Position numbers and translations under genes: made by a program. The notes beneath the pieces were generated by a model that made no database searches, was not told the DNA's origin, and was given only the letters and a program-made list of their open reading frames with translations. From contig NZ_CP034549.1 in NCBI RefSeq assembly GCF_003966335.1, positions 1,140,001 to 1,172,000 of the forward strand: DNA of 32,000 nucleotides. The letters are read 5' to 3'. Source of the stretch: Nonlabens ponticola. GTDB lineage: Bacteria > Bacteroidota > Bacteroidia > Flavobacteriales > Flavobacteriaceae. Below, piece after piece: positions 4,712 to 32,000 of the stretch (its first letter is position 1; each line of letters starts with the position of its first letter).

Positions 4712-5605
4712 ATGCAAGAAAGTCAATTTGAAAAATATCTGAGACTAGAAAGACAATATAGTGTCCATACAGTAGAGGCTTACAGTAATGATGTTGCACA
4801 GTTCCTTGATTTTGTCACAGAAAATTTTGAAACAGATGCTGCACAGGTCAATTATCCTATGGTGAGGAGTTGGCTTGCTGTACTATTAGAGCAGCAGGTA
4901 AGTAATCGTAGCATCAACCGTAAGATGTCGTCCCTCAAGACTTATTTCAAATACTTGCAACTCAGCGGCATTGTCGACAGCAACGTCATGAATAAGCACA
5001 AGAGTTTGAAAGTTAATAATAACATTCAAACGCCCATGTCACCAGACGAGATTAAAAGTCTCTTATCACAACCAATAGATGAAACAGACTTTACCGCCGT
5101 GCGCGATAGATGTGTCATGGAACTATTATACACCGCTGGCCTGCGACGAGCAGAGCTCATTTCATTGACAATTGCTTCTATTGATCATCAAAAAAAGCAG
5201 TTGATTGTAAACGGTAAGCGCAACAAGCAGCGATTGATACCGCTGCTTCCTTCAATGCTAGAAAGGATTAATAATTACAAGGTACTGCGGGAACTCCATT
5301 ATTCCTCAAGCACCGTTCAGGAATTGTTTATCACTTCAAAAGGCAAACCGATTTATCCTACATTGCTATATAGAATTGTGACTACACAACTAAAAAGCAT
5401 AAGTAGCAAGACCAAAGTAAGTCCTCATATCTTAAGGCATACGTTTGCCACTCATTTAATCAATAATGGCGCAGAGCTTAATGGAGTAAAGGAGTTGTTG
5501 GGTCATGCTAGTTTGGCAAGCACACAAGTCTATACTCATTCCAGTATGGAAGCGCTCAAGAAAGTTCACGCACTGGCTCATCCACGCAATAATAAGAAAC
5601 GGTAA
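4712..5605 (+). CDS. tyrosine site-specific recombinase, XerC/XerD family
   Basis: 297 aa. N-terminal SAM-like core-binding domain. The catalytic residues are present in LYTAGLRRAEL, HILRHTFATHL and LLGHASLASTQVYTH. Confidence 0.85.
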   Translation: MQESQFEKYLRLERQYSVHTVEAYSNDVAQFLDFVTENFETDAAQVNYPMVRSWLAVLLEQQVSNRSINRKMSSLKTYFKYLQLSGIVDSNVMNKHKSLKVNNNIQTPMSPDEIKSLLSQPIDETDFTAVRDRCVMELLYTAGLRRAELISLTIASIDHQKKQLIVNGKRNKQRLIPLLPSMLERINNYKVLRELHYSSSTVQELFITSKGKPIYPTLLYRIVTTQLKSISSKTKVSPHILRHTFATHLINNGAELNGVKELLGHASLASTQVYTHSSMEALKKVHALAHPRNNKKR

Positions 5606-5747: not shown

Positions 5748-5821
5748 GCCGATGTAGCTCAGCTGGCTAGAGCAGCTGATTTGTAATCAGCAGGTCGTGG
5801 GTTCGAGTCCCTCCATCGGCT
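5748..5821 (+). tRNA. tRNA-Thr (anticodon UGU)
   Basis: Cloverleaf folded by hand. Acceptor GCCGATG/CATCGGC, anticodon stem GCTGA/TCAGC, loop TTTGTAA, T-loop GGTTCGAGTCC. CCA is not encoded. Confidence 0.95.
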
Positions 5822-5853
5822 CAAGTTTTTTGAAAAATTGAATTAATTAATTT

Positions 5854-5934
5854 GGGGAGATACTCAAGCGGCCAACGAGGACGGACTGTAACTCCGTTGG
5901 GAAACCTTCGCAGGTTCGAATCCTGCTCTCCCCA
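5854..5934 (+). tRNA. tRNA-Tyr (anticodon GUA), long variable arm
   Basis: Acceptor GGGGAGA/TCTCCCC, anticodon stem ACGGA/TCCGT, loop CTGTAAC, long variable arm, T-loop GGTTCGAATCC. Confidence 0.95.
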
Positions 5935-5970
5935 CTTTTTTAATTACTGTGCCGATTTATTGGTGCAATT

Positions 5971-6043
5971 GCGAGAGTAGCTCAGTTGGTAGAGCGTCAG
6001 CCTTCCAAGCTGAATGTCGCCGGTTCGAACCCGGTCTCTCGCT
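5971..6043 (+). tRNA. tRNA-Gly (anticodon UCC)
   Basis: Acceptor GCGAGAG/CTCTCGC, anticodon stem TCAGC/GCTGA, loop CTTCCAA, T-loop GGTTCGAACCC. Confidence 0.95.
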
Positions 6044-6098
6044 CAAAATAGAGTAATGCCTTTCTTGATTTTAGAATGATAAAGTCATGAAAAAACAG

Positions 6099-6170
6099 GC
6101 CGGTGTAGCTCAGGGGTAGAGCGTTTCCTTGGTAAGGAAGAGGTCACGAGTTCAAATCTCGTCATTGGCT
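6099..6170 (+). tRNA. tRNA-Thr (anticodon GGU)
   Basis: Acceptor GCCGGTG/CATTGGC with two G-U pairs, anticodon stem TTTCC/GGAAG, loop TTGGTAA, T-loop AGTTCAAATCT. Confidence 0.9.
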
Positions 6171-6287
6171 CAAAAGTATTGAAGAAAAAAATAGGTCTTT
6201 AGCGAGGCCATTTACAGTATAAGCTGATGTGGTTTGTAGCCAGTTGGTTTTAAATTGAAACACTAATATAAACTAAGATTATAAGTT

Positions 6288-7609: not shown

Positions 7610-7682
7610 GCGGGTTTAGCTCAGTTGGTAGAGCACTGGTCTCCAAAACCAGGTGTCGGGAGTTCGAGCCTCTCAACCCGCG
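7610..7682 (+). tRNA. tRNA-Trp (anticodon CCA)
   Basis: Acceptor GCGGGTT/AACCCGC, anticodon stem CTGGT/ACCAG, loop CTCCAAA, T-loop AGTTCGAGCCT. Confidence 0.95.
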
Positions 7683-7761
7683 CAAATTTGAAGTCAGATA
7701 TTTACTTTACGTGATGTCTGATTGAGTAATGGACATTAAAGTTCAAACACGTTAAACGATT

Positions 7762-10265: not shown

Positions 10266-10317
10266 CAATCAATTAGTACGCAATTAATTATTTATAAATT
10301 TTATTAAAACGATAGAA

Positions 10318-10692
10318 ATGGCAGATTTAAAAGATTTCGCAGAGCAGTTAGTTAACTTAACTGTGAAAGAAGTAAACGAATTAGCAGACATACTTAAAGA
10401 AGAGTATGGAATTGAACCAGCAGCAGCAGCAGCTGTTATGGCTGGACCAGCTGCAGGCGGCGGTGAAGCTGCTGATGAGCAGACTGAATTTGATGTAATC
10501 CTAACTGCTCCAGGTGGCGCTAAGCTTGCTGTAGTAAAACTAGTTAAAGAATTAACTGGTGCTGGATTGAAAGATGCAAAAGAACTTGTTGATAGTGCAC
10601 CATCTCCAATTAAGGAAGGTGTTTCTAAAGATGAGGCAGAAGCACTTAAGGCACAGCTAGAAGAAGCTGGTGCTGAGGTTGAGTTGAAGTAA
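10318..10692 (+). CDS. rplL: 50S ribosomal protein L7/L12
   Basis: 124 aa. Ala/Gly-rich hinge and C-terminal domain [24 protein letters not shown]...[10 protein letters not shown]. Confidence 0.98.
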
Positions 10693-10714
10693 TTCTTCAC
10701 AACCCAACATTATC

Positions 10715-14717: not shown

Positions 14718-17700
14718 ATGGCTAGATATAACGAAACCCAAACGCAGAAGAAATTTTCTAAGATTTCCATAGGTCTTGCATCTCCAGAATCAATCCTTGC
14801 AGAATCAAGAGGTGAAGTCTTGAAACCTGAGACGATTAACTATCGTACACACAAACCTGAGAGAGATGGTTTGTTCTGCGAGCGCATCTTTGGTCCTGTA
14901 AAGGATTATGAGTGTGCCTGTGGTAAATATAAACGCATACGTTACAAGGGTATCGTGTGTGATCGATGTGGTGTCGAGGTAACTGAAAAGAAGGTGAGAC
15001 GTGACCGTATAGGACACATCAATCTGGTAGTTCCTGTGGCGCACATTTGGTATTTCCGTAGTTTGCCTAATAAAATAGGTTACCTACTAGGATTACCATC
15101 TAAGAAACTGGATATGATCATCTACTACGAGAGATATGTAGTGATCCAGCCAGGTATCGCAAAAAATGAAGAAGGTGAAGAAGTTCAAAAAATGGACTTC
15201 CTAACTGAAGAAGAATACTTAAACATTCTTGACACGTTGCCACAAGAGAACATGTATCTCGAGGACAGCGATCCTAACAAATTCATCGCAAAGATGGGTG
15301 CAGAATGTTTGATCGATCTTCTACAACGCATTGATCTTGAATCATTGTCTTACGACCTGCGTCACAAGGCAAATAACGAGACGTCAAAGCAGCGCAAGAT
15401 GGAGGCACTCAAGCGTCTTCAAGTTGTTGAGGCTCTCAAGGAATCAAACGAGAAGCGTGAGAACAATCCAGAGTGGATGATTATGAAAGTGGTTCCAGTA
15501 ATACCGCCAGAATTACGTCCATTAGTACCACTAGATGGTGGTCGTTTTGCAACGTCTGACTTGAATGATTTGTATCGTCGTGTGATCATACGTAACAACC
15601 GTTTGAAACGATTGATGGAGATCAAGGCGCCAGAGGTAATCTTGCGTAATGAGAAGCGTATGCTTCAAGAAGCAGTTGACTCACTTTTAGATAATACTAG
15701 AAAATCAAGCGCTGTAAAGACAGATTCTAATCGTCCATTGAAATCTCTTTCTGACTCATTGAAAGGTAAGCAAGGACGTTTCCGCCAGAACTTACTGGGT
15801 AAGCGTGTTGACTATTCTGCACGTTCAGTAATTGTTGTTGGACCAGAATTGAAATTATATGAGTGTGGTATTCCTAAGGATATGGCTGCAGAGCTTTACA
15901 AGCCTTTTGTAATACGCAAGCTTATTGAGCGTGGTATTGTTAAAACGGTAAAAAGCGCCAAGAAAATTATAGATAAGAAAGAACCAGTGGTTTGGGATAT
16001 TCTGGAAAACGTCCTGAAAGGACATCCAGTTCTGTTGAACCGTGCGCCAACGCTACACCGTCTAGGTATACAGGCCTTCCAGCCTAAGCTTATTGAAGGT
16101 AAAGCGATCCAGCTACACCCATTAGTATGTACAGCATTTAATGCAGACTTTGATGGTGACCAGATGGCAGTACACTTACCACTAGGTCCAGAGGCTATTC
16201 TGGAAGCACAACTGTTGATGCTTGCATCACACAATATCTTGAATCCTGCCAATGGTAGCCCAATTGCGGTACCATCACAGGATATGGTATTGGGTCTATA
16301 TTACATGACCAAGTTGCGCAGATCAGAAGGTGATCACATCGTCAAAGGTGAAGGTCTTACCTTCTACGGTCCAGAAGAATTGGTAATTGCATTTAATGAG
16401 AAGCGAGTTGACATTAATGCGCCAGTAAAATGCCGTATCAAGTTATTGCAAAAAGATGGATCTTATAAAGCCGAGATCATTGAGACTACTGCTGGACGTG
16501 TTCTCTTTAATGAGAAAGTGCCAGACGAGGCTGGTTATATTAATGAGGTACTTACTAAGAAGGCCCTGCGCGATATCATCGGTGATATTCTTAAGGTAAC
16601 TGATGTTCCTAGAACAGCAGCATTCCTTGATGAAATCAAAGATCTAGGTTATGGATTTGCATTCCGTGGTGGATTGTCATTCTCTCTAGGAGACATTATG
16701 ATCCCAGCAGAAAAGCAATCTATGATTGATAATGCTAATAAGAAAGTAGACGCCATACGTGGTAACTACGGTATGGGTCTCATCACTCAAAACGAGCGTT
16801 ACAATCAAGTAATTGACGTATGGACTGCAACAAATGCAGAACTTACTGAATTGTCAATGAAGAACATTAGAGAAGATCAACAAGGATTTAACTCTGTGTT
16901 TATGATGCTTGACTCTGGTGCACGTGGATCTAAGGAACAAATCAGACAGTTGACTGGTATGCGTGGTCTTATGGCTAAGCCTAAAAAGTCTAACTCTGGT
17001 GGTGGCGAGATTATTGAAAACCCTATTCTTTCTAACTTTAAGGAAGGTCTTTCAATCCTTGAATACTTTATCTCAACGCACGGTGCTCGTAAAGGACTTG
17101 CAGATACAGCCCTTAAAACGGCAGATGCTGGTTACTTGACTCGTCGTCTGCATGACGTTGCACAAGATGTAATCGTCAATACGGTTGATTGTGAAACATT
17201 ACGCGGTATCGAGGTGGCACCGCTCAAGAAGAATGAAGAAGTAATGGAGCGCCTTGGTGCTCGTGTAGTAGGGCGTACTGCCTTGAATGACGTTGTAGAT
17301 CCTGCAACTCAAGATGTTATCGTTGCAGCTGGTGAATTGATTACAAATCAACTCGCTGATGTAATTGATGAGTCAGATCTTGAGTCAGTAGAAGTTCGCT
17401 CTCCGCTTACCTGTGAAGCAGATAAAGGCGTTTGTGCAAAATGTTATGGCCGCAACCTTGCTACTAATAGAATGGTAATGAGAGGTGAGGCTGTAGGTGT
17501 GATCGCAGCACAGTCTATTGGTGAGCCTGGTACACAGCTTACACTACGTACATTCCATGTGGGTGGTGTTGCAGGTAACGTTTCCGAAGAGAATACGATT
17601 GTTGCTAAAAACGATGGTATCCTTGAAATCGATGACTTGAAAACAGTCAAAGGTGAGAGTAGTGATGGTAAAGCAGTAGAGGTAGTAATATCTCGTACAG

Positions 17701-19025
17701 CTGAGGCTAAATTAATGCACCCTAAGACGGGAATTCTTCTTAACTCCAATAATATCCCTTATGGATCAGAGCTGTATGCAAAGGTTGGAGCCAAGGTTAA
17801 GAAAGGTGATCTGATTGCTAAATGGGATGCCTTTAACGGTGTGATCATTTCAGAATTTGCTGGTAAGATCAAGTTTGAAAATATCATTCAAGGAACAACC
17901 TTCCAGGTAGAGACTGATGAGCAAACAGGATATGAGGAGAAAGTAATTTCTGATTCGCGTGATAAAAAGTTGATCCCTACGTTGCATATTGTTGACACGA
18001 AAGGTGAAACACAAATAAGTTACAACCTACCAGTCGGAGCTCACCTGATGGTAAATGATGATGAGAAGATCAAAGTAGGTAAAGTGCTTGTTAAGATACC
18101 ACGTAAATCTGCCAAAGCAGGTGATATAACCGGTGGTCTTCCTCGAGTTACTGAATTATTTGAAGCGCGTAATCCTTCTAATCCAGCAGTAGTGACTGAG
18201 ATTGATGGTGTCGTTTCTTTCGGTAAGATCAAAAGAGGTAATCGTGAAATTATCGTGACTTCTAAGACTGATGAGGTTAAGAAATACCTAGTAAAACTAT
18301 CTAATCAAATCTTAGTACAAGAGAATGATTATGTTAGAGCAGGTATGCCGTTGTCTGATGGTTCTATTACACCTAAAGATATTCTTGCTATCAAAGGACC
18401 TAGCGCTGTTCAACAGTATCTAGTAAATGAGGTACAAGAAGTATATAGGTTACAAGGTGTGAAAATCAATGACAAACATTTTGAAGTTGTTGTACGTCAA
18501 ATGTTGCGTAAGGTTAAGATCGTTGATCCAGGTGATGGTGTATTCTTGGAGAACCAATTGGTTCACAAGGAAGACTTTATCAAAGAGAATGATAAACTTT
18601 ATGGTATGAAGGTAGTTGAAAGTGCTGGTGATTCTGATACCTTGAAAGAAGGGCAAATCATCACTCCACGACAACTGCGCGATGAAAATAGTAAACTTAA
18701 GAGAGAAGATAAGAATGCGGTAGTTGCAAGAGATGTAGAACCAGCAACAGCAGAGCCTGTGTTGCAAGGTATTACACGCGCATCACTACAAACTAAATCT
18801 TTCATTAGTGCTGCATCATTCCAGGAAACTACTAAAGTATTGAATGAGGCTGCGGTTAGCGGTAAGGTCGATACCCTAGAAGGACTGAAAGAGAATGTAA
18901 TCGTGGGACATAGAATACCAGCTGGTACTGGAATGCGTAACTATGATGATATCATCGTAGGTAGTAAAGAAGAATTTGAAAATTTACTGCAACGCAAGGA
19001 CGAACCACAAGTAAACTATAATTAA
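14718..19025 (+). CDS. rpoC: DNA-directed RNA polymerase subunit beta'
   Basis: 1435 aa. Zn-finger [20 protein letters not shown], catalytic [12 protein letters not shown], and trigger-loop/bridge-helix regions are recognisable. Confidence 0.99.
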
Positions 19026-19333
19026 TGAGTAAGGAGAGGAAAGATCACAAAATCAACATTGAAATAGATCCAGAGGTTGCAGAAGGTCAATACAGTAATT
19101 TGGCCATTATCAATCATTCAGTTTCAGAGTTTGTTGTTGATTTCGTGAATATCATGCCAGGTAATCCAAAAAGTAAAATCAAGTCAAGGATCATATTGAC
19201 TCCTCAACATGCTAAACGTTTAGCAATGGCGCTGTCTGATAATGTTCAAAAGTTTGAAAAAATGCATGGGACTATTAAGGACTATGATAAACCTCCTATT
19301 CCATTAAATTTTGGCCCGACGGGTCAAGCATAA
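19025..19333 (+). CDS. small conserved protein, DUF3467-like
   Basis: 102 aa. The ATG overlaps the rpoC TAA by one base (TAATG at 19023-19027). The sequence YSNLAIINHSVSEFVVDFVNIMPG...RIILTPQHAKRL matches my memory of the DUF3467 family found after rpoC in Bacteroidota; this is not verified by a search. Confidence 0.7.
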   Translation: MSKERKDHKINIEIDPEVAEGQYSNLAIINHSVSEFVVDFVNIMPGNPKSKIKSRIILTPQHAKRLAMALSDNVQKFEKMHGTIKDYDKPPIPLNFGPTGQA

Positions 19334-19335
19334 TC

Positions 19336-19370
19336 AAAAGCCTGATGTTATCATCAGGCTTTTTTATTTT
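19336..19370 (+). terminator. rho-independent terminator closing the rpoBC-DUF3467 unit
   Basis: GCCTGATG (19340-19347) pairs with CATCAGGC (19352-19359) around a 4-nt loop TTAT. An A-tract lies upstream and TTTTTTATTTT downstream. Confidence 0.85.
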
Positions 19371-19678
19371 ATATATATTCCTCATAAGAAAATTCGATAG
19401 CTTTGGTTTTTGCGACACCATTGAGTCGCTTCTAAGGCTATTTTAGATATTTCATATAGAAACACCCATAAGCTAAAATTAAGCCTGCTCATGCGCCTCA
19501 AAACAAGATTTTAAAAGGTGTACTACTAAATAAGTTTTTCTTACCAGTGTTTGGTCGATTATATCTGATCTTAAGCGATACGTTTCGTTAATCTTAGGAA
19601 TAATTAAAGATTTCAGTTAAGATATACTTAATTTAGTAGGTAAAACCCTATCCAAGGGTCGTTTTAAAAAATGTCTAT

Positions 19679-22600
19679 ATGAATAACTTTACTCGTTCCC
19701 TATCTGTTTTAAGGAGTACTAGTTTATTGAAGTTCCCTATACTTCTAGCGATTCTACTAGCCTCATTGCAGTCTATAGCTCAGTCAGATCCAGTATTCCC
19801 TAATACCGCGAGACTTATTGAAGGTACTGATTTGCAGGAAGGTGCTGTGTATTTATTGCCTAATGCGGTAGAAGCCGGCGTTAATGGTACTGAAAACGCA
19901 GATGCCTTGTTAACCATTGTTGATATTATAGGTACTGCATCGGTAAATTCAATCGATATTACTCAAATAGAGCAAACCTATTTTGAGCCTAGTATTACAT
20001 ATCGAGCGGCTGGTGACGCGGTAGAATTCGAGATGATCTTTATAAGATCTGGCTCTGCAGAGCCAAATCTTGAAGATGCAGTAAAGCTGCCTATCGATAG
20101 TTATTCGATGGCGGTCATAGATTTAGATGGTGCTGAATTTGCTAACATACTTGTACCTGCGAGTTATACACTAGATAATAATACGCAACTTACTGATATA
20201 GTGACACCTGGTGATCCATATGTTCAGTTTACCAGCCCTCAAAATCCATTTGCCGCTGGAGCCAGCATAGCAAATACTGAATACATTGTTCAGGTCAATT
20301 ATGTTGACGTAAGCCGGGTCAACTTTATCCTAGGTAGAAATGTCAATGCTACCTCTACCAGAAATATCTCCATAAGTTTTTTAGGTGATGTTAATTTCAC
20401 GGCCCAAAACTCTACAACTAACGAGGTGAATAATCCGCCTCTGGTCGTTAACCAACAAGGTTCTACACGTTTTAATACAACCAGTATAAGCTTTGATCTA
20501 CTTGATGGATCGTCTGATCCCCAAGGAAATATAGATCCCAGCACACTGTTTTTGGTGGATCCGAATGATGCAAATAACTTTGGTGAGGTAGGTACGCCTC
20601 TCACAATTCCAGGTCAAGGAACCTATGTCGTGCAAAACGATGCTACTGTGACCTTTGATCCAGAGACTGGTTTCTTGGGGAACGCAGTCGTCAATTTTAG
20701 GGTAGAGGATCTGCCAGGCGCTACTTCCAATACTGCTAGCTTAATTGTTAATGTTGATAGGGATTCTGATGGTGACGGGATTGATGATTCGGTCGATCTT
20801 GATGATGATAATGATGGTATTCCAGATCTAATTGAAGCAGGTGGTCAGGTCAATGACTCTGCAGATTGTAGTGGTGGTCAATTGAATTTTGCTGCGGCAA
20901 ATGCAACATTGGAGTCAGGTAGTGATAATGGCGTTGTTGATGAAGGTGATGTTTTTAGATTTGCCAATGTCCAGACTAATCCTGGAGTGGATGCTTTAAT
21001 TACCATTGTTAATTATGACAGTGCGCAAATTGTCGATATAGATGATGAGACCGTTGGAGTTGGTTTTGCAGAAGGTTTTCAACCACGTATTCAATATATA
21101 GGTGCTGGTAATCCTGGCGTTGATTTACTTTTTAGTTTCGTAGAGTCGGGTACTAATAACCCGGTAACGCTAGATTCATTTTCTGGTGTGGTAAATGATG
21201 TGGATGGAACTGGCGTTCGTGAGGCATATGTTATAAACGATCCAGCCTTTTACGCTCTTAATAATCCAACCAATCTTGTCGCTACTAATTTAGGTGGCGG
21301 CAACATAAGATTTTCGGCTGATGGTCAATCAGATCAAGCCAGTATTGGAACTGCTCCCGAATATCAAGGTTATTTTCAATTCAACAATGTACAGCAAGTA
21401 CCTTTGCGTGTAGAGTTTTTAAACCCTAACAACAACACGCGAACAAGACAATTTAGTATACTCATTGATGAGTGCGCTATCAATTCTTTTGATGAGCCAC
21501 TTGTAGTAATTGATACAGAAAATGCACCAGATAGCGATGGCGATGGCATTGATGATTATCTGGATTTAGACTCTGATAATGACGGTATCTATGATGTGGT
21601 AGAGGCCGGTCATGACGCAGCACAATCAAATGGTGTATTGACTGGACCGGTAGGAACAGACGGTATTCCAGATGCAGTGCAAGATGCTGGCGATGAGGAT
21701 AGCGGCGAGGTCAATTACACACTTGTAAATTCAGATTCTGTTGGTGAGCCAGATTATTTAGATCTTGATAGTGACGGTGATGGATGTACTGATAGTAATG
21801 AAGCCTATGCAGATTCAAATGCTGATGGCGACGATGATGGTCAATTCGGTAGTGGATTACCCGCTGCGACAAACAATAATGGTACAGTAGCTTCCGCTAG
21901 TTACAATGCACCTGCGGACCAGAATTCTAATAGTGTAGCAGACTTTCGCGAAAGCGGTCCAGACGTCAATGGCGACAATAGGCCAGACGCCTGTTTTCCT
22001 CCTGTAGATTCTGACGGAGATACCGTTTTTGACAATAGAGATCTTGACGATGATAATGATGGTATCCTTGATATAGTTGAGGAATTAGGATTTGACGACA
22101 GTAATTGTGATCAACCAGAGGTAAACATAATCGGGACTAATGCAAACCTTGAATCGGGAACCGCCGGTGAGATAGGTGCTGTTTATAGATTTCCCAATGC
22201 TATCCCATCGCAAAATCGTGACGTTTTAGTTACGATTGTTGATAAGTCAGATGCGGCGACCCTTATCGATATTGATACACCTAATGGAAATCAATTGCGC
22301 AACGTTGCCTTAAGACCTCGTATAAGGGACAACAATCTTACTGATGGTGTAGCCGCAACCGTGACTTTTGAGCTTACTGTTGTTGAAAATGGACAAAATA
22401 CACCACTGACGATTGAAAGATTTGGTGGTATTGCTGGTGATATAGATGGTGTCAATCCTGGTAATGAGGTGGTTACCATAATTGATCCAGATTATCTTGC
22501 GGTTGATGAGACTACTTTGCTTTCGCGAAATGACTTACCTAACGATCGCTACGAGTATCCTAGTCCCGTAGGAGCAAATAATGTGACCGAGGAGAGAAAA

Positions 22601-25600
22601 GCGGTCTTTTTTGCCTACAACTCTCCGAGAACCTCTGTAGAAATACAATTAGGTGTAAACGGATCCTCTGATTCTGGTACAACTACAGATGACGAGCGAT
22701 TAGGTCTAGTAACTTTTGGTGAATGTACGATCAACACCTTACCAGACCCTAATCTTGATGTAATAAATGGCCGCGATCCAGACGGTGACGGTATCCCAAA
22801 TTCCCGTGATATTGACGCTGATAACGATGGTATCATTGATATAGTTGAAAATGGAAACGGTGATCTTGACGCAGACGGTGATGGCATAATTGATGGCCCA
22901 GTAGGCAGTAACGGTGTTCCTGATAGTGTTGAGAATGGTGGTGCTGATTCTGGAGACGTTGATTTTCCAGATGATTTTGACAATGATGATATTTTAAATT
23001 TCCTTGACCTTGACTCTGACGATGACAGCATTGCAGACAATGTAGAAGGTCAACCTACAGATTCTTACCAGACTCCAGTAGCAGGCGATGGCAATAATAA
23101 TGGTCTGTTAGATATCTATGAGCAAGGTGGTACCACTGGTATTGACCCAGAAAATACAGATGGTACAGATGGTCCTGACTTTTTAGACCTGGACTCTGAC
23201 AATGATTCCATCAGTGATCTAAATGAGGCAAACGATGACAACCTCGATGGTATAGCAGATATTCAGCCCTCAGGAGATGATGTAGATGAAGATGGTCTTG
23301 ACGACGCTTTTGATAGCGATGCAAATGATTTTGGAGATTTAAATGGTGGGTTTGTAGATACAGACCCTGCTGCAGATCTTACTAATAGTGATGGCGCTGA
23401 TGATGTAAATTATCGTGACACAGATGATGACAATGATGGGACGCTCACTAGCGATGAGGTTACAGACCCAAATAATCCAGAAGATGGAAACGGTAATGGA
23501 ATTCCAGACTTCCTAGAAAATATAGACACAGATGGTGACGGAATTCAAGACGATGTTGATGTCGATGATGACAACGATGGTATTCTAGACACGGTCGAAG
23601 GTCAAGGTGATCGTGATAATGATGGTATTCCTAATTCTCTCGATCTAGATTCTGATGGCGATGGGCTACCAGATAATATCGAGGCTCAAACTACCTTAGG
23701 CTATGTAGTGCCTCTAGATAGTGACAATGATGGTATTCCAGATGTAAATGCAAATGGTTTACCTACTTCTTATGATTTTAATGGTGACGGTTTAGGGTTA
23801 CTACCTGTAAATACTGACAACGCAGATCAGCCTGACTACCTGGACTTAAACTCTGATAATCAAGGTGATAACGATACAGTTGAGGCTGGCATCACGCTAA
23901 CTGGCGATGACACAGATGGTGACGGTCTAGATGATGCTACAGATGAGACTGACTCACCAGCTGGCAACTATGCAGATCCTAATGGAACCATTGATGACCC
24001 AGCGCTTCTACCAGATACCGATGGTGATTTGAATTCTGGAGGTAATGTTGATTTTAGAGATAGAACCTTGCCTAACGATGCAGATGGTGATGGCGTTCTG
24101 GACAAAGATGATCTTGATGATGATAACGATGGTATCAGTGATATTACGGAAGGTTTAGAGTTTTTCGTTGATGATTCTGCTACGTGTAGCGGTATCGATT
24201 ATGAGTTTAACGGCGGCACATTAATCGCTGGAACTGCAGGTCAAGTAGGTGCTAGATATAGATTTAGCAATGTGGCGCCTGGCCTTGACGCTATTATACA
24301 AATCACCCAACGCAGTGCAGGTGCTACACTTGCAAGTATCGATCAAAATTTAGGTGATGGTTCTGCATGGCAGCCATCCATCAGCTACTCTGCAGCTTCA
24401 AATGGTGATCTTACCATGACATTTAGAGTAGAGCTGGTAACTACTGGAACCCAAACGCTTGCCACGGTTGATCGCATAGGTGGCGTCATTCAAGATATTG
24501 ACAGCGATGGTACCGGTAGAATTAGAGAATTTTATAGATTATCAAACTTAGATAATTACACCGTTGACGCTAACACTAGAGTCATCGCTCAAGAGCTAGG
24601 TGGTGGTCAGTTCCAGTTCCGTGCAAATGGTACTGGTAGCGCGCCTATTGAGCCTATCGACACAGATCCTGCTTACAAGGTGTTCTTCCAGAGACAAGAC
24701 GTAAATCAGTTTACCTATGTAATAGGTGTAACTAAAAATATTAATCAAGCACAGACTAGATTCTACAGCGCTCGATTTGACGAGTGTCGTATTAACACAT
24801 TTGACGAGCCAGTAGTCGTTATCGTCAATGCACCAGATACTGACAATGATGGAACCCCTAATTATTTAGATACAGATTCAGATAATGATGGTTGTAATGA
24901 TACCATTGAGGCTGGTTTTGTTGATGCTTTCGCGAAAGCGGACGAAGACGGATTCCTAGGTAACGGTACACCAGTTGTAGAACCATCAAATGGTTTAGTG
25001 ACAAGTGGTAACAATGGCGAAGGTTACACAGAACCTAGAGACGCAAACAACAATGGCATTTTTGATTTCTTAGAAGCTGGATATTCAGAGGCTTGTAATG
25101 ATACAGACGGCGATGGTATAAATGACCTAGTCGACATCGACGATGACAACGACGGTATCTTGGATACCGATGAGGATGCAGATGATGATGGTGACGGCAA
25201 CCCGTTCACGGATCCTACGGATACTGACAATGATGGTATCCCAGACTTCCTTGACCAGGATGCAGATGGTGATGGTATCCCAGATAATGTAGAGGGCCAG
25301 ACCACCGATGGTTATGTGGAGCCTAGTGGCAATGATACCGATGGCAATGGTCTTGATGATGCCTATGAGGCGACTCCAGGCTCTGGTGATGGTATCAATG
25401 TAGAGGATACGGACACTGACGGCACACCTGACTATCAGGATACGGACTCAGACGACGATGGCGTCAACGATATCTTTGAGGGAACCGATAGAGACGGTGA
25501 TGGCACTCCAGATGTGGTTCCAGCAGGAACAGATACGGACAACGACGGTATCGACGACAACTTTGATGATACTGATGGTTATGCAGATCCTAACGGTAAC

Positions 25601-28600
25601 CAGGTAACAAACGATCCAGAGACAGAGCTTGCCAATATTGATGGTGATGAGCAGCCCAACTACCGTGATAGAGATGATGATGGTGACAACGTGCTTACCG
25701 CAGACGAGAACCCAGACCCTAACGGCGATGGCGATCCTAGCGACGCGCAGGATACCGACAATGATGGCATCCCAGATTATCTGGATACGGACGATGACGG
25801 CGACGGCATAGACACCGCAGATGAGGACTATGACGGTGATGATGATCCAACGGATCAGGACAGCGACAACGATGGCATCCCAGATTACTTAGATGATGAT
25901 GATGACGGTGACAACGTTCTTACCGCAGATGAGACCCCAGATCCTAACGGTGATGGTAATATCGACGACGCACAGGATACTGATAGTGACGGTATCCCAG
26001 ATTACCTAGATGAGGATGATGACGGCGATGGCATTGATACGGTCAATGAAGATTATGATGGTGACAATGATCCAACAGATCAGGATAGCGATAGTGACGG
26101 CATTCCAGATTATCTAGATGAGGATGATGATAACGATGGCATCGATACGATCGACGAGAATCCAGACCCTAACGGTGATGGTGATCCAGCCGATGCACAG
26201 GATAGCAATGGCGATGGTGTTCCAGACTACCTGGATACTACAGATATCGATGGTGATGGAATCGTGGATTCTGTCGACATCGACGATGACAACGACGGTA
26301 TCTTGGATACTGATGAGGATGCAGATGATGACGGTGACGGCAACCCGTTCACGGATCCTACGGATACTGACAATGATGGTATCCCAGACTTCCTTGACCA
26401 GGATGCAGATGGTGATGGTATCCCAGATAATGTAGAGGGCCAGACCACCGATGGTTATGTGGAGCCTAGTGGCAATGATACCGATGGCAATGGTCTTGAT
26501 GATGCCTATGAGGCGACTCCAGGCTCTGGTGATGGTATCAATGTAGAGGATACGGACACTGACGGCACACCTGACTATCAGGATACGGACTCAGACGACG
26601 ATGGCGTCAACGATATCTTTGAGGGAACCGATAGAGACGGTGATGGCACTCCAGATGTGGTTCCAGCAGGAACAGATACGGACAACGACGGTATCGACGA
26701 CAACTTTGATGATACTGATGGTTATGCAGATCCTAACGGTAACCAGGTAACAAACGATCCAGAGACAGAGCTTGCCAATATTGATGGTGATGAGCAGCCC
26801 AACTACCGTGATAGAGATGATGATGGTGACAACGTGCTTACCGCAGACGAGAACCCAGACCCTAACGGCGATGGCGATCCTAGCGACGCGCAGGATACCG
26901 ACAATGATGGCATCCCAGATTATCTGGATACGGACGATGACGGCGACGGCATAGACACCGCAGATGAGGACTATGACGGTGATGATGATCCAACGGATCA
27001 GGACAGCGACAACGATGGCATCCCAGATTACTTAGATGATGATGATGACGGTGACAACGTTCTTACCGCAGATGAGACCCCAGATCCTAACGGTGATGGT
27101 AATATCGACGACGCACAGGATACTGATAGTGACGGTATCCCAGATTACCTAGATGAGGATGATGACGGCGATGGCATTGATACGGTCAATGAAGATTATG
27201 ATGGTGACAATGATCCAACAGATCAGGATAGCGATAGTGACGGCATTCCAGATTATCTAGATGAGGATGATGATAACGATGGCATCGATACGATCGACGA
27301 GAATCCAGACCCTAACGGTGATGGTGATCCAGCCGATGCACAGGATAGCAATGGCGATGGTGTTCCAGACTACCTGGATACTACAGATATCGATGGTGAT
27401 GGAATCGTGGATTCTGTCGACATCGACGATGACAACGACGGTATCTTGGATACTGATGAGGATGCAGATGATGACGGTGACGGCAACCCGTTCACGGATC
27501 CTACGGATACTGACAATGATGGTATCCCAGACTTCCTTGACCAGGATGCAGATGGTGATGGTATCCCAGATAATGTAGAGGGCCAGACCACCGATGGTTA
27601 TGTGGAGCCTAGTGGCAATGATACCGATGGCAATGGTCTTGATGATGCCTATGAGGCGACTCCAGGCTCTGGTGATGGTATCAATGTAGAGGATACGGAC
27701 ACTGACGGCACACCTGACTATCAGGATACGGACTCAGACGACGATGGCGTCAACGATATCTTTGAGGGAACCGATAGAGACGGTGATGGCACTCCAGATG
27801 TGGTTCCAGCAGGAACAGATACGGACAACGACGGTATCGACGACAACTTTGATGATACTGATGGTTATGCAGATCCTAACGGTAACCAGGTAACAAACGA
27901 TCCAGAGACAGAGCTTGCCAATATTGATGGTGATGAGCAGCCCAACTACCGTGATAGAGATGATGATGGTGACAACGTGCTTACCGCAGACGAGAACCCA
28001 GACCCTAACGGCGATGGCGATCCTAGCGACGCGCAGGATACCGACAATGATGGCATCCCAGATTATCTGGATACGGACGATGACGGCGACGGCATAGATA
28101 CGGCGGATGAGGACTATGACGGCGATGATGATCCAACAGATCAGGACAGCGACAACGACGGCATTCCAGATTATTTGGATACGGATGATGACGATGACAA
28201 CGTGCCTACGGCAGATGAGAACCCAGACCCTAACGGTGATGGTAATATCGACGATGCACAGGATACTGATAGTGACGGTATCCCAGATTACCTGGATGAG
28301 GATGATGACGGCGACGGCATTGATACGGTCAATGAAGATTATGATGGTGACAACGATCCAACAGATCAGGATAGTGATAATGACGGCATTCCAGATTATC
28401 TAGATGACGATGATGATAATGACGGCATTGACACGATCGACGAGAATCCAGACCCTAACGGTGATGGTGATCCAACCGATGCACAGGATAGCAATGGCGA
28501 TGGTGTTCCAGACTACCTGGATACTACAGATACCGATGCTGATGGAATCGTGGATTCTGTCGACATCGACGATGACAACGACGGTATTTTGGATACCGAT

Positions 28601-31600
28601 GAGGATGCAGACAATGACGGTGACGGCAACCCGTTCACGGATCCTACGGATACTGACAATGATGGTATTCCAGACTTCCTTGACCAGGATGCCGATGGTG
28701 ATGGTATCCCAGATAATGTAGAGGGCCAGACCACCGATGGTTATGTGGAGCCTAGTGGCAATGATACCGATGGCAATGGTCTTGATGATGCCTATGAGGC
28801 GACTCCAGGCTCTGGTGATGGTATCAATGTAGAGGATACGGACACTGACGGCACACCTGACTATCAGGATACGGACTCAGACGACGATGGCGTCAACGAT
28901 ATCTTTGAGGGAACCGATAGAGATGGCGATGGCACTCCAGATGTGGTTCCAGCAGGAACAGATACGGACAACGACGGTATCGACGACAACTTTGATGATA
29001 CTGATGGTTATGCAGATCCTAACGGTAACCAGGTAACAAACGATCCAGAGACAGAGCTTGCCAATATTGATGGTGATGAGCAGCCCAACTACCGTGATAG
29101 AGATGATGATGGTGACAACGTGCTTACCGCAGACGAGAACCCAGACCCTAACGGCGATGGCGATCCTAGCGATGCGCAGGATACCGACAATGATGGCATC
29201 CCAGATTATCTGGATACGGACGATGACGGCGACGGCATAGACACGGCGGATGAGGACTATGACGGCGATGATGACCCAAAGAATCAGGACTCAGACAACG
29301 ACGGCATTCCAGATTATTTGGATACGGATGATGACGATGACAACGTGCCTACGGCAGATGAGAACCCAGACCCTAACGGTGATGGTAATATCGACGATGC
29401 ACAGGATACTGATAGTGACGGTATCCCAGATTACCTGGATGAAGATGATGACGGTGATGGCATTGACACAGTTGATGAGAATCCAGATCCTAACGGTGAT
29501 GGAAACGTCGATGATGCACAGGATACTGATGGCGATGGCATTCCAGATTATTTAGATGTTGATGATAGGGATGGTGATGGTATACCAGACGCATTAGATA
29601 TTGATGATGATAATGACGGTATTCTTGACAGTGTAGAGAATGGTGGGCAGGATCCTTTTGAGGATGACGATAATGACGGTGTTCCTAATTTCAGAGATAC
29701 TGACTTTGGTGCAGATGCTAACAACGACGGTGTTGTAGATAGCTTTGATAGTGACGATGATGGAATCATTAATCAATTTGATCAAGATTCAGACGGTGAT
29801 GGTATTCCAGATAATGTCGAGGCTCAGTTTACTGATACTTATCAGGAACCAACTGGTGCAGACAATAATAATGATGGTCTCAACGATGATTATGCTCCTA
29901 ATGGTATAACTCCAGTTGATTCAGATAATGATGGTACACCAGACTATTTGGATGATGATTCAGATGATGATGGCATTACTGATGCTATAGAAGGCTTTGA
30001 TTTTGATAATGATGGTGTCGCAGACTCTGTTCCTAGCGGTGTCGACAATGATGGCGATGGTTTCGATGATAATTTTGATGCTACCACAGATCCAGCGGAC
30101 GCCTACGATGATCCTAATGGTAATTTAGTTTCTAATGACCCTGCAAATGAACTGAACAATACAGATGGCGAGGATGAACCAGATTATCGTGATACAGATG
30201 ATGACAATGATAATGTCTTAACTGATGTAGAGGTAACTGATAATGACAATCCAGAAGATTCTGATAACGATGGTATTCCAGATTATCTGGATGCAGATGA
30301 TCGTGACGGTGATGGCATTCCAGACACTGTAGATATTGATGATGACAATGACGGGGTTTTAGACAGCGTAGAAAACGGTGGTAATGATCCATTTAATGAT
30401 ACTGACAATGATGGTGTAGCAGATTTGTTTGACACAGACTTTGGTCCAGATTCAAATAATGATAGTATCGTTGATAGTTTTGATAGCGATCTTGATGGTA
30501 TCATCGATCAATTTGATCAGGACTCAGATGACGATGGTATTCCAGACAATGTCGAGGCACAGACTACTTCAGGATACACCGCACCTACCGGTAATGACGA
30601 TGACAATGATGGTCTTGACAACGCATATGAGGCAAATGGTATAACACCTGTCGATACTGATAGTGATACGATCCCAGACTATTTAGATGATGATTCTGAT
30701 GATGATGGTATTTCTGATAATATAGAAGGATTTGATTTTGATAATGATGGCGTTGTTGATATCGCTTTCGCGGAAGCGGACAATGATAACGACGGTCTGG
30801 ACGACAATTTTGATTCAACCACAGATCCAGCTGATGCTTATGATGATCCTAACGGAAACGTCGTCTCTAACGATCCAGCTAATGAGCTAAATAATACTGA
30901 CGGTGCAGATGAACCAGATTATCGTGATGCTGATGATGATAATGATGGTGTTGATACGGATGACGAGGTAACAGATAATGACAACCCAGAAGATTCTGAT
31001 AACGACGGTATACCAGACTATCTAGATGCAGATGACAATGACGGTGATGGTATTCCGGATACTGTAGATGTAGATGATGATAATGATGGTATTGCAGATG
31101 TTGTTGAAAATGGCGGCAACGATCCTTTCGGAGATGACGACAGTGATGGTATCGCAAATTTCCTAGACGTTGATGGTACTAATGATTCTAATAATGATGG
31201 AATTGTTGATGACTTTGATCAAGACTTAGATGGTATCGTCAATCAGTTTGATCTAGACGCAGATGGTGATGGATTGACAGATGTATTTGAATCAGGCAAC
31301 GCTGCTCTTGACACAAACGATGATGGATTAATCGATAGTCAAGATGCTGGATTCACCGACTCTCCTGCAAATGGACAAGCCGATAACACAGAAGGTACAA
31401 CACCAATCGACAGTGATGGTGATGGCGTTGCCGATTATCTTGACATTGATTCAGATAACGATGGTATAATTGATAATCTTGAAATTCAGGATTCTGCAAA
31501 TACGACAAGGCCAACAGGACAAGATGATGATGGTGATGGAACTGACAATGCCTATGATGCTGATAATGGAGGAACTCCAATCTTAACACCAGAAAATACT

Positions 31601-32000
31601 GATAGTGATACACAACCAGATTATCTAGATATCGACTCCGATGACGACGGTATTATCGATAATATTGAATGGCAGACAACTTCTGGATATTTAGAACCTA
31701 CTGCCGATACTGATGGCAACGGTCTGGCAGATAATTATGAGACTAGAGCAGGTTCTAATACCCCAATTAGACTTCCTGTAAATACTGATGGGGCTGATAA
31801 TCCAGATTATCGAGACCTAGATTCAGACGATGACGGTCTTACAGATAATGACGAGGTTTACAACTTGCCTCCAGCAAATCTTGATTCAGATAATGATGGT
31901 CTAGATGACGCCTATGACAATGATGACGTGGGTGGACTTGATGGTCCTGATGCGGCTACAAACGGCAACATGAATGGTCCAGATGGTGGTAGCGTTCAAG
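19679..32000 (+). CDS. giant secreted Asp-rich protein built from thrombospondin type-3-like calcium-binding repeats (putative surface adhesin or fibre); the 3' end lies beyond the window
   Basis: I translated by hand from the ATG at 19679 and found no stop through 31999, which is 4107 codons. No closed + ORF in this frame appears in the track. The N-terminal signal peptide is [36 protein letters not shown]. There are dozens of DxDxDG(I/V)(P)DxxD motifs. Antisense and off-frame ORFs in the track are shadows of this gene. Confidence 0.9.
   Translation, partial: [4107 protein letters not shown]
20432..20755 (+). other. Ig-like or CshA-type adhesin repeat module within the giant CDS
   Basis: The segment [48 protein letters not shown] has the pattern typical of bacterial adhesin beta-sandwich repeats (GTYTV..DGTVTFTP..GFTG...Y.V.D..G..S..A.L.V.V). 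Confidence 0.45.
20864..21499 (+). other. unnamed module of about 212 aa bracketed by cysteines, paralog 1 of 3 clear copies
   Basis: Runs from DCSGG to [12 protein letters not shown]. Shares GxV(F/Y)RFxNV...(V/L)DA(L/I)ITI, a central D(V/I)DGxG and a C-terminal (D/G)ECxINxFDEP with the copies at 22103 and 24182. A more diverged copy lies at about 19790-20430. Confidence 0.7.
21943..21954. repeat. palindrome family member CTTTCGCGAAAG inside the giant CDS
   Basis: Read directly. In-frame as D-F-R-E-S-G. Confidence 0.8.
22103..22750 (+). other. unnamed Cys-bracketed module, paralog 2
   Basis: Runs from [35 protein letters not shown] to [12 protein letters not shown]. Aligns by eye with the modules at 20864 and 24182. 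Confidence 0.7.
22521..22530. repeat. degenerate palindrome family member (GC)TTTCGCGAAA(TG) inside the giant CDS
   Basis: 10-nt perfect core TTTCGCGAAA. In-frame as L-S-R-N. Confidence 0.6.
24182..24811 (+). other. unnamed Cys-bracketed module, paralog 3
   Basis: Runs from [41 protein letters not shown] to [12 protein letters not shown]. Confidence 0.7.
24926..24939. repeat. palindrome family member GCTTTCGCGAAAGC inside the giant CDS
   Basis: 14-nt perfect palindrome. In-frame as A-F-A-K-A. Confidence 0.85.
25130..29593 (+). repeat. in-frame tandem array of a 1143-bp (381-aa) unit, 4 copies, the last lacking 108 bp
   Basis: Unit heads GTCGACATCGACGATGAC occur at 25130, 26273, 27416 and 28559, each exactly 1143 bp apart. 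The shadow ORFs in the track repeat with the same period and identical translations. Confidence 0.95.
29594..31270 (+). repeat. in-frame tandem array of a diverged 735-bp (245-aa) unit, about 2.3 copies, in register with the 1143-bp array
   Basis: Unit heads (L/V)D(I/V)DDDNDG occur at 29594, 30329 and 31064. Shadow ORFs 29548..29769 and 30283..30504 are 735 bp apart. There are many substitutions between copies. Confidence 0.85.
30763..30778. repeat. imperfect palindrome family member CGCTTTCGCGGAAGCG inside the giant CDS
   Basis: One mismatch to the 16-mer found at 1135 and 7559. In-frame as A-F-A-E-A. Confidence 0.7.

Follow-up and report, generated by a model that had tools for sequence, protein, structure and literature searches.

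In a 32,000-nt stretch of the Nonlabens ponticola genome (RefSeq assembly GCF_003966335.1, contig NZ_CP034549.1, positions 1,140,001 to 1,172,000 of the forward strand; hereafter, the window), a giant open reading frame (ORF) contains an array of nearly identical 1143-nt tandem repeats. This array is probably the youngest layer of a hierarchical, Asp-rich region resembling thrombospondin type 3 repeats (TSP3-like), and the last step in its growth was probably one unequal exchange that took it from three units to four. It now consists of three full units and one shortened unit, together 4464 nt (25130-29593), and its period of 381 codons is in frame with the open frame that runs from 19640 to 32000; the region has no other long open frame. 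The features discussed below are listed in Table 1.

Table 1. Positions of the repeat array, its host gene, and neighboring features in the N. ponticola window (aa, amino acids).
Feature	Position (nt)	Strand	Description
Unit 1	25130..26272	+	1143 nt, 381 aa; 35% Asp, 12 strict DxDxDGxxDxxD/E loops, no Cys
Unit 2	26273..27415	+	Exact chimera: offsets 0-682 as in unit 3, offsets 60-1142 as in unit 1
Unit 3	27416..28558	+	Older mosaic (segment distance matrices, maximum chi-square)
Unit 4	28559..29593	+	Shortened terminal unit, 1035 nt (gapped alignment)
Perfectly periodic block	25190..28098	+	2909 nt, period 1143
Putative crossover interval of the last expansion, in unit 2	26333..26955	+	623 nt, units 1, 2, and 3 identical
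Nested older sub-repeats	25673..26204	+	225-nt period, 76-81% identity; also 108/117-nt periods (TRF, repeat finding)
Nested sub-repeats in later units	26816-27347, 27959-28523, 29299-29566	+	
Three older TSP3-like modules (29594..31798)	29594-30328, 30329-31063, 31064-31798	+	735 nt (245 aa) each
Giant ORF	19679..32000	+	ATG at 19679, frame open from 19640; at least 4107 codons, exits the window at its 3' end
Predicted Sec signal peptide	19679..19783	+	MNNFTRSLSVLRSTSLLKFPILLAILLASLQSIAQ, cleavage before S; aa 1-35
Cys-bracketed non-TSP domain, copy 1	20858-21490	+	~210 aa
Cys-bracketed non-TSP domain, copy 2	22100-22741	+	~210 aa
Cys-bracketed non-TSP domain, copy 3	24176..24802	+	~210 aa; final globular domain ahead of the array
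rpoC	14718-19025	+	Conserved anchor of the syntenic position
DUF3467 gene	19025-19333	+	Conserved anchor of the syntenic position
Intrinsic-terminator-like hairpin	19336..19363	+	12-bp stem and T run after the DUF3467 gene; parts the rpoBC operon from the giant gene

The borders of the array are evident from the DNA. Self-identity at a lag of 1143 nt is about 30%, the random level, before position 25130, and it is high from there to about 29443. In a megablast comparison, 25130-28323 matched 26273-29466 at 98.3% over 3195 nt, and chance is ruled out as the source of a match of such length and identity. An earlier interpretation of the same DNA, made from its letters and a list of its ORFs (the sequence-only reading), had placed four in-frame units of period 1143 at the starts given in Table 1, and both the lag identity and the ORF frame show these to be correct; its array end, 29593, is the end of the shortened unit 4 in a gapped alignment. 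It had also proposed a pairwise comparison of the units, which confirmed their near-identity and added to it a long perfect block and the chimeric nature of unit 2. All of the length changes detected (1143, 108, 735, and 225 nt) are multiples of three and thus preserve the frame. ORFs of 105 aa that recur once per unit in the +1 frame (26118-26435, 27261-27578, and 28404-28721) were judged to be echoes of the repeat and not genes.

Unit 2 carries most of the evidence for the proposed history. It differs from unit 1 at exactly two positions, 25168/26311 (C/T, in a Thr codon) and 25189/26332 (T/C, in an Asp codon), both synonymous, and these are the same two differences that the sequence-only reading had reported. 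Its differences from unit 3 number 32, and all of them lie within offsets 683-1123. A table of variable sites across the four units revealed no variant private to unit 2. Positions 25190-26955 are identical to 26333-28098, a block of 1766 nt with zero mismatches. The remaining units are less alike: units 3 and 4 differ at 17 sites in their first 884 nt, and unit 4, which retains about 96% identity to the other units over its first ~896 nt, is missing 108 nt (36 codons) equivalent to 28312-28419 and falls to only 71-88% identity over its last ~165 nt.

Unit 3 is itself a mosaic. It differs from unit 1 at 34 sites: the first 683 nt contain two of them, and the remaining 460 nt contain 32. This clustering is highly significant (Fisher p=2.5e-11), and the maximum chi-square falls at offset 683 (permutation p<=0.0005). 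Over offsets 0-683, unit 3 shows two differences from unit 1 and nine from unit 4, whereas over offsets 683-884 the respective numbers are 20 and eight. Trees of the two segments are incongruent: the first groups unit 1 with the identical units 2 and 3 against unit 4, and the second groups units 1 and 2 against units 3 and 4.

The composition of unit 2, with the 5' part of its downstream neighbor joined to the 3' part of its upstream neighbor, has the polarity expected of an expansion product. A misaligned crossover in an array of units X, Y, and Z yields the order X, (5' Y + 3' X), Y, Z, and one such three-to-four event explains units 1 to 3. The latest event would then have been a single out-of-register homologous exchange between repeats of unit-1 type and unit-3 type, either by unequal crossing-over of sister chromosomes or by slippage during replication, with its junction somewhere in offsets 60-682. 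It would have added one 381-codon unit, and no mutation would have occurred in the array since. The polarity of the chimera lends strong support to an exchange of this kind; together with the older mosaic in unit 3, it bears out the unequal recombination that the sequence-only reading had suggested. The polarity of unit 3, on the other hand, fits a contraction product or a conversion tract, and several past exchanges are therefore indicated in the array; earlier events of either type would have made unit 3 by joining a unit-1-like 5' part to a unit-4-like 3' part. The array would thus be evolving in concert, and its length would be expected to drift by 381 residues at a time.

Repeat turnover in giant bacterial adhesin genes is of course already well known, and because it is textbook behavior, current views are not overturned by this array. 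It is, however, an unusually clean record of a single event in the growth of such a gene, with the last step placed in an interval of 623 nt. Few published examples show the product as clearly, since in the majority of arrays the copies are either all identical or have been collapsed during assembly.

Older modules and third-position composition

The three 735-nt modules adjoin the young array directly, and several generations of one repeat are thus present in the same gene. The modules are 75-79% identical to one another and match the 5' half of the 1143-nt unit at about 74%. They differ at 44% of third codon positions and at 14% of first and second positions, with the protein motif kept; in the older 3' part of the array, the corresponding divergences are 15% and 2.9%. 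Third positions therefore diverge freely in the older layers, which argues that synonymous sites are free and that purifying selection acts on the protein. By the same reasoning, synonymous identity in units 1 to 3 means that these copies are either young or recently homogenized. Selection at the protein level as the cause of unit identity is ruled out by the 44% third-position divergence of the older paralogues, and the sequence-only reading, which had favored recent duplication or concerted evolution over such selection, was right on this point.

The array also stands apart in its G+C content at third codon positions (GC3), which is 0.28 upstream (19679-25129), 0.44 in the array (25130-29593), and 0.24 downstream (29594-31999), with sharp borders between the three. 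For the amino acids of one unit, the observed GC3 is 0.43, versus an expectation of 0.25-0.27 when the remainder of the gene serves as reference and of 0.28-0.32 when the 14 other genes of the window do. Codons for Gly, Asn, Thr, Ile, Glu, and Val account for the shift and those for Asp do not; the effect is strongest in the most homogenized part of the unit. Among arrays in the other loci compared (L numbers), a strong shift was found in L003 (13638-17070; 0.60 in the array vs 0.25 expected or in the rest, as for the values that follow) and L074 (2062-3701; 0.41 vs 0.28), and a weak one in L015 (22579-24308; 0.27 vs 0.18) and L034 (0.46 vs 0.36). The difference was negligible in L002 and L025, and also in the two-copy duplication of L072.

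GC-biased gene conversion has been proposed for bacteria (PMC4450053). Conceivably, the N. ponticola array is a long-lived, concertedly evolving module whose raised GC3 is the footprint of such conversion in a low-GC bacterium, but we consider this a doubtful proposition. Non-independence of the sub-repeats, chance, and import are other candidates, and the shift is at present unexplained. The AT-to-GC direction of the differences between unit types was viewed informally, on too few sites and without an outgroup. Should the idea hold, the arrays inside genes for giant Bacteroidota adhesins would offer natural and internally controlled reporters of biased gene conversion in bacteria, the existence and strength of which are disputed, and the Nonlabens site between rpoC-DUF3467 and porP/sprF, described below, would be a hot spot for the swapping and resizing of stalk cassettes. 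A GC3 shift of this kind, if general, bears on that debate.

Alternative explanations of the array

Several points weigh against one or another part of the interpretation given above. Unit 2 could in principle also be the product of two gene-conversion tracts that abut. As a walk through an assembly graph, the array reads a-S-X3'-Y5'-S-X3'-Y5'-S-Y3', which is the minimal three-unit path plus one loop. Variation in copy number between strains, which the sequence-only reading had anticipated, would be expected to occur in nature, but the comparison covered one N. ponticola genome; no second genome of the species was found in the collections searched (its DUF3467 cluster is a singleton), and no contig was recovered with exact look-ups of the DUF3467 protein and RpoC of the window or of the PorP/SprF protein P0184. 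As for the TSP3 likeness, per-segment Pfam searches gave 16.6 bits for TSP_3 and 13.1 bits for TSP3_bac, each with seven matched stretches, vs a cut-off of 25, although a correction for composition bias is the likely reason for these sub-threshold scores. An AlphaFold2 model of the unit, built on an alignment of seven paralogues from the window, was uninformative, with a pLDDT of 47.6 and almost no regular secondary structure. Finally, the host protein is placed in the type IX system for secretion (T9SS) only by analogy, because its C-terminus and the downstream gene fall beyond the window.

It could be that the true array has three units, or some other number, and that the assembly either made one pass too many around the cycle to which the 623-nt stretch shared by units 1 and 3 gives rise or lost genuine differences between the copies when it was polished with mis-mapped short reads. 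One additional loop in the graph gives the same four-unit structure, the content of unit 2 is wholly present in unit 1 or unit 3, and drafts of related genomes break exactly in such repeats. Tandem repeats are, moreover, a documented source of assembly errors (PMC6868369). The caution voiced in the sequence-only reading about copy number was therefore justified, and the database length of the giant gene is flagged here for verification. Nevertheless, we think an artefact unlikely: the contig is chromosome-sized (2,872,100 bp), which usually means that long reads spanned the 4.5 kb, and errors in repeats normally collapse copies instead of adding them. The distinct variants of units 3 and 4 were also resolved, and strain MIC269, the other Nonlabens with a complete genome, has comparable arrays.

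Homogenization without growth is a second alternative, in which a fourth unit already existed and was overwritten by non-reciprocal gene conversion while array length stayed stable. Long-term biased conversion would fit the raised GC3, and unit 3, being upstream-like in its 5' part and downstream-like in its 3' part, has the polarity of conversion or contraction, not of expansion. To account for unit 2, however, this scheme needs two tracts, each from a different donor, that between them extend over the full 1143 nt without sparing a private site, where a single exchange suffices. That length does change in this gene family is further shown by the loss of 108 nt from unit 4 and by the differing unit counts and types in relatives, and we consider it improbable that conversion alone produced the array.

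It is scarcely credible that identity was kept by selection at the nucleotide level (on mRNA structure or codon choice) or that the array was recently imported as a block: its codon usage does deviate (GC3 of 0.43 vs the 0.28-0.32 expected), but synonymous sites have changed freely among older copies of the module, a syntenic Nonlabens-like gene (in L070) is collinear (60% aa) across the border from the upstream domain into unit 1, so that the module is ancestral at this position, and the closest matches to the unit protein reached no more than ~42% aa over the full unit among metagenome contigs and at most ~60% aa, over the first ~227 residues only, in the protein database. That collinearity contradicts the idea of a foreign array. 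A single expansion by unequal exchange thus remains the reading that we prefer.

The host gene and the variable Nonlabens locus

The host gene very probably encodes a giant, Sec-exported surface protein, an adhesin of the T9SS with a type B C-terminal domain (CTD), as judged by analogy with its relatives. The predicted signal peptide was read from the translation by eye: its n-region is basic, its core is hydrophobic, and its IAQ site is AxA-like. In the visible 4107 aa, a CshA_repeat adhesin domain at aa 257-350 is the sole Pfam match, and NCBIfam and Pfam scans of the whole visible protein returned nothing beyond it; in particular, the Pfam scan gave no match to the SprB repeats (PF13573) that mark SprB-type gliding adhesins. 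RTX adhesins of type I secretion, such as LapA and the ice-binding adhesin MpIBP, are marked by an N-terminal retention module, RTX nonapeptides at the C-terminus, and a T1SS signal; they have no Sec signal peptide, whereas a classical one is present here. An RTX assignment is also disfavored by the host, a member of the Flavobacteriaceae, and by the T9SS sorting domains of its relatives, the C-terminus of the protein itself lying beyond the window.

Ahead of the array, three domains of ~210 aa are paralogues of one another, with a Cys near each end (…C(S/D)…, …(D/G)EC.IN(S/T)(F/L)), and none matched a Pfam or NCBIfam family. The third is 50-70% identical in amino acid sequence to syntenic genes of other Nonlabens. 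Across relatives, these domains are the best-conserved parts of the protein, and they may be ligand-binding modules.

The rest of the visible protein is Asp-rich and contains 99 strict DxDxDGxxDxxD motifs in total; each 381-aa unit has 12 strict and 24 relaxed ones. A search of PDB sequences with one unit found only weak matches, to BamM (E=0.037) and COMP (E=0.34). The motif suggests that the units bind Ca2+ and act as a spacer or stalk, and the protein may be a fibre, as the sequence-only reading called it. By analogy with MpIBP, the array would be a Ca2+-loaded, non-globular spacer in a T9SS-anchored adhesin, its length changing in steps of 381 residues, and each Asp-rich step would alter both the reach and the calcium load of this probable surface adhesin.

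Upstream of the giant gene, the order is rplKAJL-rpoB-rpoC-DUF3467, followed by a strong terminator. Because of this terminator, the giant gene probably has its own promoter, within 19364-19678; our promoter scan does not cover Bacteroidota-type promoters. RpoB and RpoC of the window fall in Nonlabens clusters. The cluster of tRNA-Thr/Tyr/Gly/Thr, tuf, tRNA-Trp, secE-nusG, rplKAJL, and rpoBC is standard (tRNAs at 5748-6171 and 7610-7683), and the order from the tRNAs to rpoBC is the same in all of the Nonlabens loci fetched. A gene for a tyrosine recombinase (XerC/D-like; 4712-5605) precedes the tRNA/tuf cluster. A 138-aa antisense ORF (10284-10700, minus strand) overlaps rplL and does not look like a gene.

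In other Nonlabens, the same position downstream of rpoC-DUF3467 is occupied in different ways. Nonlabens sp. MIC269 (L015) has an 8934-aa gene with at least six near-identical 303-nt SdrD_B-like repeats (98-99% identical). The syntenic gene of N. xiamenensis is split over two contigs (L016 and L071): its 5' part has identical Calx-beta-like repeats, and its 3' end (L071) encodes SdrD_B and CHU_C (type B CTD) domains and is followed by genes for PorP_SprF, a PorE-like OmpA protein, and RF3. N. spongiae (L017) and strain MB-3u-79 (L018) have no giant gene, and PorP_SprF directly follows DUF3467. From the rpoC-DUF3467 side to porP/sprF, this site is hypervariable in Nonlabens, ranging from no gene to one of 8934 aa and containing SdrD_B, Calx-beta, or TSP3-like repeats. 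The rpoBC-DUF3467 / porP/sprF site is thereby a possible strain marker.

A porP/sprF gene also lies directly downstream in L072. The N. ponticola genome encodes an orthologous PorP/SprF (P0184); the downstream neighbor of the giant gene falls beyond the window. A type B CTD (PF13585 CHU_C / TIGR04131) is found in the relatives P0002 and P0003, in addition to the syntenic N. xiamenensis gene, and database relatives of the window protein are named T9SS type A/B sorting-domain proteins. The cognate porP/sprF gene normally lies after the gene for a type B substrate, and the Nonlabens site is a variable locus for such a substrate and its shuttle, similar in kind to those known from Flavobacterium johnsoniae (PMC12618676).

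Homology to the MIC269 and N. xiamenensis genes (50-70% aa) ends at the residues EAC (aa 1804-1806, ~nt 25096), 34 nt before the array; past this point, those genes carry on with CLIPPER/DUF11 and SdrD_B domains. This abrupt stop suggests a breakpoint, coincident with the border of a domain, that arose by recombination or the swapping of cassettes. The syntenic contig L070 (JBPOGP010000017.1) is collinear at 60% aa across the junction and into the first ~227 residues of the unit, and the TSP3 module is therefore ancestral at the site. This contig is labelled as a metagenome-assembled genome (MAG) of Maribacter stanieri, yet its RpoC is 92% identical to that of the window, which is in the range of named Nonlabens. 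Proteins of a "Rubritalea" MAG likewise fall within the Nonlabens RpoB/RpoC 90% clusters, and both labels probably reflect mis-binned or mislabelled MAG contigs.

Comparable arrays and known systems

Repeats of similar identity were detected elsewhere: L003 contains 1005-nt Calx-beta triplets at 98%, and L072 contains a 1398-nt duplication at 99.5%. Draft contigs end inside such repeats (the end of L016, the start of L071, and the end of L070); L070 stops in a 657-nt repeat, its last 80 nt being 98.75% identical to the site 657 nt upstream. Since drafts of the relatives break in near-identical repeats, these giant genes are systematically truncated in databases. No homologue longer than ~3200 aa was returned from the protein database, and true orthologues, such as the 8934-aa MIC269 protein, were reached via synteny. 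Internal repeats were counted by exact 15-mer lag. An exact 38-mer search of metagenomes gave zero matches, and the upstream domain matched, among genome contigs, only relatives at <=54% identity (Dokdonia and others).

At the level of the motif, the unit resembles the calcium-binding repeats of thrombospondin type 3 and bacterial TSP3 (PF02412, PF18884; COMP structure 3fby), which have the same DxDxDGxxDxxD loops in series, 12 of them per unit here. The likeness is incomplete, as the N. ponticola unit has no cysteines and scores below the Pfam cut-offs, whereas eukaryotic T3 repeats are stapled by disulfides.

In Gram-positive surface proteins, namely in the B-repeats of SasG/Aap and in the alpha C/Rib proteins, repeats identical at the DNA level vary in number between strains through recombination and so set the length of the protein. 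These systems differ from the N. ponticola array in phylum, in their anchoring by sortase, and in fold, and copy-number variation is documented for them and not for N. ponticola.

A further parallel is offered by SprB/SprF and Fjoh_3952/3951 of F. johnsoniae, in which a T9SS substrate with a type B CTD has a cognate PorP/SprF shuttle; these substrates, too, are very large and repetitive, carry a Sec signal peptide, and are putative adhesins. The likeness to type B at the syntenic position comes from relatives, in which a CHU_C end is followed by porP/sprF and a gene for a PorE-like OmpA protein. The visible 4107 aa of the N. ponticola protein contain no SprB-repeat match, and a link to gliding is not part of the resemblance.

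A parallel to the array itself is provided by Region II of the Marinomonas primoryensis ice-binding adhesin (MpIBP/MpAFP) and similar extenders of giant RTX adhesins, in which near-identical in-frame DNA repeats with diverged flanking copies likewise occur in a giant surface protein. The proteins differ in that the MpIBP module, a 104-aa Ig-like beta-sandwich, is present ~120 times in a protein that leaves the cell by type I secretion without a Sec signal peptide, whereas in N. ponticola a 381-aa supermodule consisting of nothing but TSP3-like Asp loops occurs only about four times, in a protein with a Sec signal peptide from a member of the Bacteroidota, where the T9SS is expected. The MpIBP array has been read as a recent expansion by unequal recombination that sets the length of an extender in a Ca2+-dependent protein (PMC3492233, PMC4083281, PMC5550230), and the N. 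ponticola array shares two hallmarks of such arrays: a unit length that is a multiple of three, and identity at synonymous sites beside older, diverged flanking copies.

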